Assembly (NCBI GenBank): GCA_964583985.1
Contig: CAZOYD010000072.1
Location: 1 to 15,878, forward strand
Length of the DNA stretch: 15,878 nt
Reading direction: 5' to 3'
Origin: an uncultured archaeon
GTDB taxonomy: Archaea > Asgardarchaeota > Lokiarchaeia > Sigyniarchaeales > SOKP01
Below the pieces are notes generated by a model that was not told the origin of the DNA, made no database searches, and was given only the letters and a program-made list of their open reading frames with translations. The position numbers and the translations under genes were made by a program. Positions 2,969 through 15,878 of this stretch are shown piece by piece (position 1 is the first letter of the stretch; every line of letters begins with the position of its first letter).

Positions 2969-3020
2969 GATTTTTGTTTACTATTTCTAATATTGTGTTA
3001 TAAGGGGAAATTTTTAATAC
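2969..3020 (+). repeat. Direct repeat R2, copy a (52 bp; diverged copy of the chlI promoter region)
   Basis: GATTTTTGTTTACTATTTCTAATATTGTGTTATAAGGGGAAATTTTTAATAC aligns ungapped to 14672-14723 at 45/52 positions. Confidence 0.85.
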
Positions 3021-3044: not shown

Positions 3045-3092
3045 ATGGTAAAAAGGATTAATTTCCCATTTACTTCTTATAGTCTTCCTTAA
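3045..3092 (+). pseudogene. 5' relic of a ChlI-family AAA+ gene
   Basis: MVKRINFPFTS, then IV after a 1-nt shift, resembles the (F/Y)PF(T/S)xIxGQ start of ChlI proteins (compare MRKFLFPFSAIL at 14744). It sits at nearly the same distance behind the duplicated promoter. Confidence 0.65.
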
Positions 3093-14671: not shown

Positions 14672-14723
14672 GATTTTTGATTAGTATTTCTAATAATTTG
14701 TTTTAAGGGGAAATTATTAAAAC
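14672..14723 (+). repeat. Direct repeat R2, copy b, containing the chlI BRE/TATA promoter
   Basis: 45/52 identical to 2969-3020. Purine-rich AAGGGGAAA plus TTATTAAA (14714-14721) lies about 23 nt before the ATG at 14744, consistent with a leaderless or short-leader transcript. Confidence 0.8.
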
Positions 14724-14743: not shown

Positions 14744-15787
14744 ATGAGGAAATTTTTGTTTCCATTCTCAGCAATCCTCGGTCAAGATAAAATGAAAATG
14801 GGGCTCATTTTGAACGTAATCGACCCTCAAATTGGTGGAGTATTGCTAACTGGGCAACAAGGAACTGGAAAATCGACTGCTGTTCGAAGCTTAGTTGAAG
14901 TCATGCCTGAAATTGAAGTGGTTAAAGGATGCGTATTTTCTTGCGATCCGAATTTAGAATCCGAAGATTTATGCGATGAATGTCGCGAAAAGAGAAAAAA
15001 TGGTACAATTGAGCTTGAAAAGAGGAAAATGCGAATCACAGAGCTGCCCTTAGGAGTAACAGAAGATATGGTCTGCGGTGCGCTCTCTATTGATAAAGTC
15101 CTCACTGAAGGAATCCGAAGCCTTCATCCAGGGTTACTTGCTAAAGCAAATCGGGGCATATTATATGTAGATGAGATTAATTTACTCCAAGATCATATAG
15201 TTGATGTCTTATTAGACTCTGCCGCATCTGGAGTGAACATCATTGAACGTGAAGGAATTTCAGTGGCTCATCCCTCTCGATTTGTATTGGTCGGTAGTAT
15301 GAACCCCGAGGAAGGAGAACTCAGGCCGCAAATAGCGGATCGTCTTGGATTGGAGGTTAAAATTAAAGCACCTCGAGATCGTAAGCTACGAGCAGACATA
15401 ACTCGGAGTGTAATCGAGTTTGATGATAATCCCAAAGAATTTATCAAACCTTTCGAACATGAACAAGAATTATTAAAGACCAAGATTATAAAAGCGAGAC
15501 AAATTCTTAAAGATGTCGTAGTTCCGATATCTGTTTTTGAATTTGTCTCGGAGATTGTGAGTGAATTGGGCATTTTTTCTCAACGAGCAGACATAACTTT
15601 CATTCGATGTGCCCGTGCTCATGCAGCTTTGGAAGGAAGAAAAGAAATTGCTGAAGAAGATTTAAATGTCGCCCTCGATCTTGTTTTCGAGCATAGGATT
15701 CAATCACTTCATTATGAAATGACACCTGAAGAAGTTAAGGCTAAAATTACTGAGGTTTACGGAAAATTACAGAGAATTACTCTTTAA
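14744..15787 (+). CDS. chlI: Magnesium/cobalt chelatase ChlI/BchI-family AAA+ ATPase (probably the N-terminal part of a longer ChlD-like protein)
   Basis: FPFSAILGQ, Walker A GQQGTGKST, LPLGVTEDMVCG, PGLLAKANRGILYVDEINLL (Walker B), MNPEEGELRPQIADR. The same frame stays open after the TAA to the window end. The symbol denotes the family; chlorophyll function is not implied. Confidence 0.9.
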   Translation: MRKFLFPFSAILGQDKMKMGLILNVIDPQIGGVLLTGQQGTGKSTAVRSLVEVMPEIEVVKGCVFSCDPNLESEDLCDECREKRKNGTIELEKRKMRITELPLGVTEDMVCGALSIDKVLTEGIRSLHPGLLAKANRGILYVDEINLLQDHIVDVLLDSAASGVNIIEREGISVAHPSRFVLVGSMNPEEGELRPQIADRLGLEVKIKAPRDRKLRADITRSVIEFDDNPKEFIKPFEHEQELLKTKIIKARQILKDVVVPISVFEFVSEIVSELGIFSQRADITFIRCARAHAALEGRKEIAEEDLNVALDLVFEHRIQSLHYEMTPEEVKAKITEVYGKLQRITL

Positions 15788-15794
15788 GCCGGAA
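15765..15794 (+). other. 30-nt in-frame, stop-containing segment; candidate bulge-helix-bulge mRNA intron
   Basis: CGGAAAA occurs at 15760-15766 and 15790-15796, around the hairpin TTAcAGAG-aatta-CTCTtTAA. Removing 30 nt gives ...EVYGKIEKAYEDPRAYQPSKDTEGPLKHDDTP with no stop. Confidence 0.45.
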
Positions 15795-15878
15795 AAATTG
15801 AAAAAGCTTATGAGGATCCTAGGGCTTATCAACCCAGTAAAGATACTGAAGGGCCTTTAAAACATGATGATACGCCTC

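Follow-up and report, generated by a model that had tools for sequence, protein, structure and literature searches.

Why does a ChlD-like gene of an uncultured Loki-type Asgard archaeon (Promethearchaeota) stop at an in-frame TAA although the same frame stays open beyond it? The gene lies at the right end of contig CAZOYD010000072.1 (assembly GCA_964583985.1), and the window considered here is that entire contig, 15,878 nucleotides (nt) in length (C72 of genome G000). The open reading frame (ORF) at 14744–15787 encodes 347 amino acids (aa), gives Pfam matches above cut-offs to Mg_chelatase, AAA_5 and AAA_lid_2, and ends at the TAA in question (15785–15787). Past this codon the reading frame remains open for 30 codons, up to the contig end. 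The TAA is located within a 30-nt unit bounded by two copies of the motif CGGAAAA (15760–15766 and 15790–15796).

We conclude that positions 15765–15794 very probably represent an archaeal bulge-helix-bulge (BHB), or tRNA-type, intron in the mRNA of the ChlD-like gene; its cleavage and ligation themselves we infer. This reading is preferred because the insert is real, is mostly absent from orthologues and has BHB geometry at the register that restores the protein, and because purifying selection acts on the downstream exon, the genome encodes the enzymes, and inserts of the same build turn up at other sites and in other genes. A preliminary description of the window, made from its letters alone, had proposed a BHB mRNA intron in an Asgard ChlD-type gene. 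The repeat-bounded unit with its TAA, the open frame to the window end and the BHB-like fold (helix, bulges, inner stem and weak outer helix) that it reported are all present in the sequence, each coordinate of the fold being correct, and comparative evidence now lends the proposal strong support.

In the proposed mechanism, the exonic ACGG of the pre-mRNA would pair with the intronic CCGG, forming a 4-bp central helix (H) flanked by two AAA bulges, and a 9-bp stem with a 5-nt loop would close the intron. The splicing endonuclease of the host (EndA) would cut after the second base of each bulge, and RtcB would join the exons into TAC GGA A/AA ATT GAA (slash, junction), giving GGTTTACGGAA/AAATTGAAAAAGC as the predicted spliced junction. 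The spliced mRNA would encode one protein of ~735 aa, like that of intronless orthologues.

Orthologues and the clade carrying the insert

When 100 genomes of the family were searched in six frames, ~90 orthologues proved to have a single open frame of ~735–745 aa and no stop, relative to which the window gene contains 30 additional nucleotides and a TAA. At E ≤ 1e-100, 393 long proteins match, typically of 734–735 aa, none of them more than 83% identical to the window protein. Orthologues of 76–82% identity read ...EVYGKIQKAYEDP... and ...EVYGKIKEAYED..., followed by a basic/Pro-rich linker and a von Willebrand factor A (vWA) domain with the motif DSSAS. The preliminary description had raised the question of whether orthologues lack the ten extra codons; they do, reading YGKI(Q/K/E)(K/E)A(Y/H)ED. 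The intronless orthologue L058 combines Mg_chelatase/AAA_5, AAA_lid_2 and VWA_2 (motif DSSAS) in a single 735-aa ORF. The predicted layout of the ChlD-like gene is an AAA+ domain, a linker and a vWA domain, with the full gene deduced from relatives.

Closer relatives, of 87–97% identity, all end in ...YGKLQR(I/V)(T/P)L before the stop and carry the insert; the insertion site in the window gene is hereafter called site B, to tell it apart from sites A and C of the same gene. The site-B insert occurs in at least nine independent assemblies (JGI, ENA, NCBI, Logan) as eight distinct sequences. Among its carriers are G089 and G091, both species genomes of the genus, and five metagenome contigs retrieved by an exon-anchored pattern; the named relatives are Promethearchaeota/Promethearchaeia metagenome-assembled genomes, including Loki_b31 and Loki_b32. 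In a tree of conceptually spliced proteins the carriers form one clade, which fits a single gain of the intron, and the site-B intron appears, from the sequences sampled, to be fixed in this clade.

An assembly artefact, in which the 30 nt would be absent from the DNA, was also listed in the preliminary description. It could draw on several contigs of relatives that end at or in such inserts. We nevertheless discard it, as the insert recurs in those nine or more assemblies, obtained by different projects and assemblers, and its eight variants fit a gene tree.

A further record, L060 (DATKTW010000008.1), is labelled 'Candidatus Nanopelagicaceae bacterium' and contains a 94%-identical copy of the Asgard gene; it is probably mis-binned or mislabelled.

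The downstream exon

The vWA domain expected downstream in the same frame is indeed found in relatives: in L003 and L004 a vWA domain follows the insert in frame, and the 3′ exon of relatives extends over 393 codons into a VWA_2 domain. The first in-frame ATG, GTG or TTG lies 97 codons past the intron in 7/8 of the intron-bearing loci examined, the exception being L037 with a TTG at codon 50. Among intron-bearing lineages these 97 codons evolve with a dN/dS of 0.05–0.12 at dS 0.09–0.91. With purifying selection acting on start-less codons, a dead gene is ruled out, as is a vWA protein with a start of its own; to judge from these substitution rates, translation of the downstream exon takes place as part of the same protein.

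The same observations bear on the possibility that the gene is truly split or killed by insertion of a 30-nt hairpin with a 7-bp target duplication, its AAA+ part being made alone and its vWA part being separate or not made at all. Direct CGGAAAA repeats do flank the insert in the window, and gene callers give every close relative considered here a 348-aa "ATP-binding protein" and, beginning 97 codons further on, a VWA protein of its own. However, the repeat is imperfect in relatives (CGGAAAG/CGGATAA and CGGAAAA/CGGACAA), the insert is single-copy in the genome, the codons before the first ATG are strongly purified with no start-like codon there in seven of the eight loci, and the whole arrangement has been kept in the clade over a dS of ~0.9. 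We therefore regard a split or dead gene as very improbable, and neither the true stop nor the transposon footprint that the preliminary description had held open survives these comparisons. An insertion sequence (IS) or miniature inverted-repeat (MITE) footprint was rejected as a candidate: the genome holds no second copy at ≤6 mismatches over 39 nt or at ≤3 over the 21-nt stem-loop, and the one match at ≤4 mismatches over 23 nt, on contig C5, is at chance level.

Excision register and BHB geometry

Deletion of 15765–15794 joins the frame as TAC GGA AAA ATT GAA (YGKIE), as the preliminary description had anticipated. In the window alone the boundaries are ambiguous owing to the flanking repeat, any of the eight 30-nt deletions starting at 15760–15767 yielding the same product. 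Relatives narrow the choice. In L002 the sequence reads GGA TAA ATT, with T at 15794 and a second in-frame stop; in L003 it reads GGA CAA ATT, with C at 15794 and a Lys-to-Gln change. YGKIE is obtained in every copy only with cuts after 15764, 15765 or 15766, and the bulge rule predicts 15764. Cuts placed according to this rule remove both the extra stop of L002 and the Gln codon of L003.

The geometry of the cut was derived from the canonical 37/38 tRNA intron and then checked on the tRNA introns of the host itself. Under the same scoring, the canonical tRNA introns of the host have H 4/4 and an anticodon stem of 5/5, with the cut after nt 37.

The variants L002 and L003 also weigh on a translational explanation, namely that the ribosome either reads through the stop codon or, in the manner of phage T4 gene 60, bypasses the insert from GGA-AAA to GGA-AAA. 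The window does offer matched GGA AAA codons 30 nt apart with a hairpin between them. In L002, however, a TAA follows the landing GGA, giving two in-frame stops, and in L003 the landing context is GGA CAA. Moreover, introns of the same build at site A are 31–32 nt long and have no matching pair of take-off and landing codons from which PEEGEL could arise, and translational bypassing is not known in archaea. Readthrough or bypassing thus seems hardly credible, slightly less so even than a split gene.

Other predicted intron sites in the same gene family

Inserts at two further positions of the gene, site A and site C, were detected through homology, not structure, in relatives of other genera (L031, L038, L040–L046 and L103–L109). 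At site A, G025 contains a 30-nt insert with H CGAA/TTCG (4/4), an inner stem of 8/9 and an outer helix of 3 bp, and G042 contains a 30-nt insert unrelated to this one, in which the 9-bp stem is perfect and the loop reads AATTC. At this site seven genomes have an insert of 32 nt and G068 has one of 31 nt; despite the frameshift that these cause, the frame beyond them remains conserved. In the 32-nt form the central helix, CCGA/TCGG, is displaced by one base relative to the 30-nt form, and PEEGEL results from both. The inner stem at site A, read by hand, shows a compensatory change from U-A to C-G with a U·G intermediate. Site C is occupied in G068, with H ACTG/CAGT, so that this genome carries introns at both sites. 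One member of the 32-nt clade, G085 (L024), is without the intron, which on the sequence comparison is a precise intron loss. The central helix at sites A and C of relatives is fully paired (4/4). In each of these cases canonical BHB geometry restores the conserved protein, providing independent support for the BHB model.

Contigs of relatives often break at or in such introns. L005 and L006 end 3 nt after the TAA, L040 and L046 (both G068) break in the site A intron, and L047 (G043) starts exactly at the site A 3′ exon. Such breaks may arise where alleles bearing the intron coexist with alleles lacking it, or where hairpins hamper assembly.

Occupancy of the other sites is relevant to the idea that intron retention is used, the unspliced mRNA giving a 347-aa ChlI-like AAA+ subunit and the spliced one a ~735-aa ChlD-like subunit. 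In chelatase-type motors the I subunit works together with a D subunit, and one Asgard gene could then supply both chelatase-like motor partners through EndA/RtcB-dependent alternative splicing. The intron falls precisely where the AAA lid gives way to the linker, all eight variants keep the TAA, and G000 contains no second ChlI/ChlD-like gene at E ≤ 1e-30. Conservation of the TAA is, however, explained by structure alone, since this codon pairs within the inner stem, and the extra tail LQRITL is found in other versions too (LQRIPL, LQRVTL, LESVPL). The large majority of orthologues are intronless and have the long form only, and retention at sites A and C, both internal to the AAA+ core, would yield a truncated protein. 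In addition, the site-B carrier G089 has a second AAA+ match (48% identity, residues 5–327) in a 383-aa open frame, a possible short paralogue. Regulated retention therefore appears improbable to us, and a single gene furnishing both partners equally so; the switch between short and long subunits put forward in the preliminary description found no support.

The features of the gene and of its predicted intron are collected in Table 1.

Table 1. Features of the ChlD-like gene and its predicted intron, in window coordinates (H, central helix; h′, inner helix; h, outer helix)
Feature	Position	Strand	Remark
Predicted 30-nt BHB mini-intron (site B)	15765–15794	+	boundaries from the bulge rule, cuts falling 3′ of base 2
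Central helix H, 5′ strand ACGG (exon)	15759–15762	+	pairs with 15789–15792; 3/4 pairs in the window, 4/4 in L118
Central helix H, 3′ strand CCGG (intron)	15789–15792	+	partner of 15759–15762
5′ bulge AAA, predicted cut after 15764	15763–15765	+	geometry validated on host tRNA introns
3′ bulge AAA, predicted cut after 15794	15793–15795	+	15794 varies A/T/C among relatives
Inner helix h′ (15766–15774/15780–15788) and 5-nt loop AATTA (15775–15779)	15766–15788	+	7/9 pairs in the window, 9/9 in L118
In-frame TAA in the predicted intron, within the inner stem	15785–15787	+	kept in all variants
Weak outer helix h, UU pairing with AA 15796–15797	15757–15758	+	2 invariant U-A pairs
5′ exon of the ChlD-like gene: AAA+ ATPase module (ChlI/ChlD type) and AAA lid	14744–15764	+	Pfam; 76–82% identity to the first ~343 residues of orthologues
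3′ exon start: acidic/Pro linker ...IEKAYEDPRAYQPSKDTEGPLKHDDTP, cut off by the contig end	15795–15878	+	same frame once spliced
Intron site A, in SMNPEE/GELRPQ	15311–15314	+	empty in the window; 30-, 31- or 32-nt BHB introns in relatives
Intron site C, in GVTE/DMV	15064–15065	+	empty in the window; perfect 30-nt BHB intron in G068 (L040)

Statistical and thermodynamic tests of the fold

A permissive BHB scan of each locus is noisy, returning hundreds of candidates at H ≥ 3. For this reason the excision register was fixed first, by homology alone, and the 30 nt were then shuffled 20,000 times. The helix score of the window is reached by 41/20,000 shuffles and is therefore more than chance; that of L118 is reached by 2/20,000. 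For the site A and site C inserts taken together, the counts are 1, 3, 41, 123 and 0 of 20,000 (1 for L031 and 3 for L038 at site A, 0 for L040 at site C).

L118 and L119 represent the most divergent site-B variant. There, three mismatches of the window become pairs (A59-U92, A66-U88 and G70·U84, numbered by the last two digits of the position) and one G-C pair becomes G·U, making the motif of L118 canonical. The variable positions of site B fall mostly at unpaired places of the BHB model.

Several results weigh against a BHB intron in the window. Taken by itself its motif is a weak BHB: the central helix consists of three G-C pairs and one A·G mismatch, the inner stem contains the mismatches C70·U84 and closing A66·G88 (7/8 paired over 15767–15774/15780–15787), and the outer helix has just 2 bp. 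The energy of the BHB model is about −0.2 kcal/mol, and the minimum free energy fold of 15752–15804 is a different hairpin (−6.9 kcal/mol, z-score −1.0). This rival hairpin (15752–15790, GGUUUA/UAAGCC plus AAUU/AAUU) is 97% paired across the site-B alignment, with one compensatory change (L004), and scores as well as the BHB in the covariation test. At site B, covariation statistics equal those of shuffles, with no double compensatory change, because variation there is too small. Neither a spliced nor an intronless form of ≥87% identity occurs in the protein collection, where the long form reaches an identity ceiling of 83%. Finally, a tblastn search over the window's own genome bin did not find the vWA part of the gene, and the contig stops 84 nt after the intron; it is for this reason that the full-length gene had to be taken from relatives.

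Thermodynamics alone does not demonstrate a BHB at the window, and the rival hairpin might compete with, or gate, its formation. Three arguments favour the BHB model over the rival hairpin: only the former predicts exact excision, the L118 sequence disrupts three of the rival's pairs, and the BHB build is found again at sites A and C and in other genes. With its short outer helix, the motif is a relaxed, HBh′-like one, needing an EndA of broad specificity.

Splicing machinery and inserts of the same build

Genome G000 encodes two EndA-family (PF01974) proteins, in the regions C4:51753-51977 and C3:71349-71597, and a single RtcB, at C1:155665-156978. The two EndA paralogues are consistent with the broad-specificity (αβ)2 type of the enzyme; Asgard EndA has been reported as (αβ)2 with an L1 loop, the type that cleaves relaxed motifs (PMC5829648). 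G000 is rated 100% complete, yet ARAGORN detects only 22 tRNA genes in it, of which 13 have introns; this suggests that many tRNA genes are hidden by non-canonical introns. This intron load fits the heavy tRNA interruption described for some Asgard lineages in a study that makes no mention of mRNA (bioRxiv 10.64898/2026.10.13.758758).

We scanned G000 for canonical BHBs whose removal fuses two long ORFs. All three perfect matches of length 30 and several near-perfect ones share the 4-bp central helix, the 9-bp stem and the 5-nt loop. Inserts of the same build are located at C85:7886-7915(+), C64:4237-4266(-), C70:973-1002(+), C123:4513-4542(-), C31:34232-34261(-) and C1:54025-54055(-), all of 30 nt but one of 31 nt. 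The genes split by these six inserts are nadE, leuS, an AMP-dependent ligase, an AIR-synthase-like gene, a VWA_CoxE gene and a putative hydrolase. For the first five of these genes, Pfam places the insert inside a genuine domain. The two halves of nadE are contiguous in the Pfam profile (positions 3–143 and 144–242), and those of leuS and the AMP-dependent ligase are consistent by Pfam.

Across the verified mini-introns the build is nearly fixed, with a 4-bp central helix, A-rich 3-nt bulges, a 9-bp stem, a 5-nt loop and a total of 30 nt. The stems are unrelated in sequence, and the loops often follow NNTT(A/C), as in AATTA, AATTC, TTAAC and AGTTC. This near-uniformity might stem from a limit that the enzyme sets on length, or from a shared mode of origin.

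Relation to known systems

BHB introns in archaeal pre-mRNA have been described for cbf5, encoding a pseudouridine synthase, in Desulfurococcales and Sulfolobales (Watanabe 2002; Yoshinari 2006; Yokobori 2009, PMC2738675). The predicted Asgard intron resembles the cbf5 intron in being short, in lying in the coding region, and in a BHB-like structure formed partly of exon sequence; in both cases the hosts have a hetero-oligomeric EndA, and lineage-specific gain is accompanied by precise loss. It differs in its host lineage, Asgard rather than Thermoproteota, and in the host gene. Furthermore, at least three sites are affected here in one gene family, the build is 30–32 nt, and copies are found in other genes; splicing has been shown for cbf5 and is predicted here.

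The literature searched contained no account of BHB introns in protein genes of Asgard archaea, and archaeal protein-coding BHB introns are documented there only for cbf5 of some Crenarchaeota. The present case is set apart by its lineage and host gene, by the several sites and genes involved and by a near-uniform build of 30–32 nt.

With the BHB introns of archaeal pre-tRNAs, among them the many non-canonical examples from Asgard archaea (PMC5829648; bioRxiv 10.64898/2026.10.13.758758), the predicted mini-introns share an identical geometry and the predicted involvement of EndA and RtcB. They differ from pre-tRNA introns in residing in an mRNA, in having 2–3 bp of coding sequence as outer helix instead of an anticodon or acceptor stem, and in requiring base-exact excision to keep the reading frame.

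A more distant parallel is the unconventional mRNA splicing of HAC1 and XBP1, a regulated switch in which IRE1 cleaves the mRNA and RtcB or Trl1 ligates it; the XBP1 intron is 26 nt long. RtcB is the ligase also used for metazoan XBP1. Common to these cases and ours are a small coding-region intron, independence of the spliceosome, a structure-reading endonuclease paired with a tRNA ligase, and a change in the C-terminal part of the protein. The differences are that the predicted endonuclease is EndA, not IRE1, that a BHB takes the place of twin stem-loops, and that XBP1 splicing is regulated whereas regulation is not seen here. Should the retention switch nevertheless be true, it would be an archaeal counterpart of the regulated splicing of XBP1/HAC1 type.

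The host protein itself is comparable to ChlD/BchD-type subunits of chelatase-like motors, an intronless orthologue having Mg_chelatase/AAA_5, AAA_lid_2, an acidic/Pro linker and VWA_2 with DxSxS. Its setting differs from that of ChlD/BchD in that the hosts are non-phototrophic archaea and an ATP-grasp_3 gene is the conserved neighbour.

In one lineage of the Asgard archaea, which are the closest prokaryotic relatives of eukaryotes, predicted tRNA-type mini-introns occupy three sites of one gene family, with gains and at least one precise loss, and in the genome studied here candidates also interrupt essential genes such as leuS and nadE. If splicing does take place, interrupted protein genes and protein-only mRNA splicing by EndA and RtcB would be routine in these archaea, offering a tractable system for intron gain. 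Standard gene calling would in that case systematically truncate or split genes in these genomes.

The upstream region of the window

Rfam gives zero matches across the window. A direct repeat (45/52 positions identical) connects 2969–3020 with 14672–14723, the latter just upstream of the ChlD-like gene. The left copy is followed, at about 3045–3080, by a relic, MVKRINFPFTS, corresponding to the N-terminus found in relatives of the ChlD-like gene; the live gene of the window begins with MRKFLFPFSA. It seems that ~11.7 kb were inserted at the 5′ end of the gene. This segment encodes a restriction-modification-type methylase, a prenyltransferase-domain protein and a 1105-aa PD-(D/E)XK protein.

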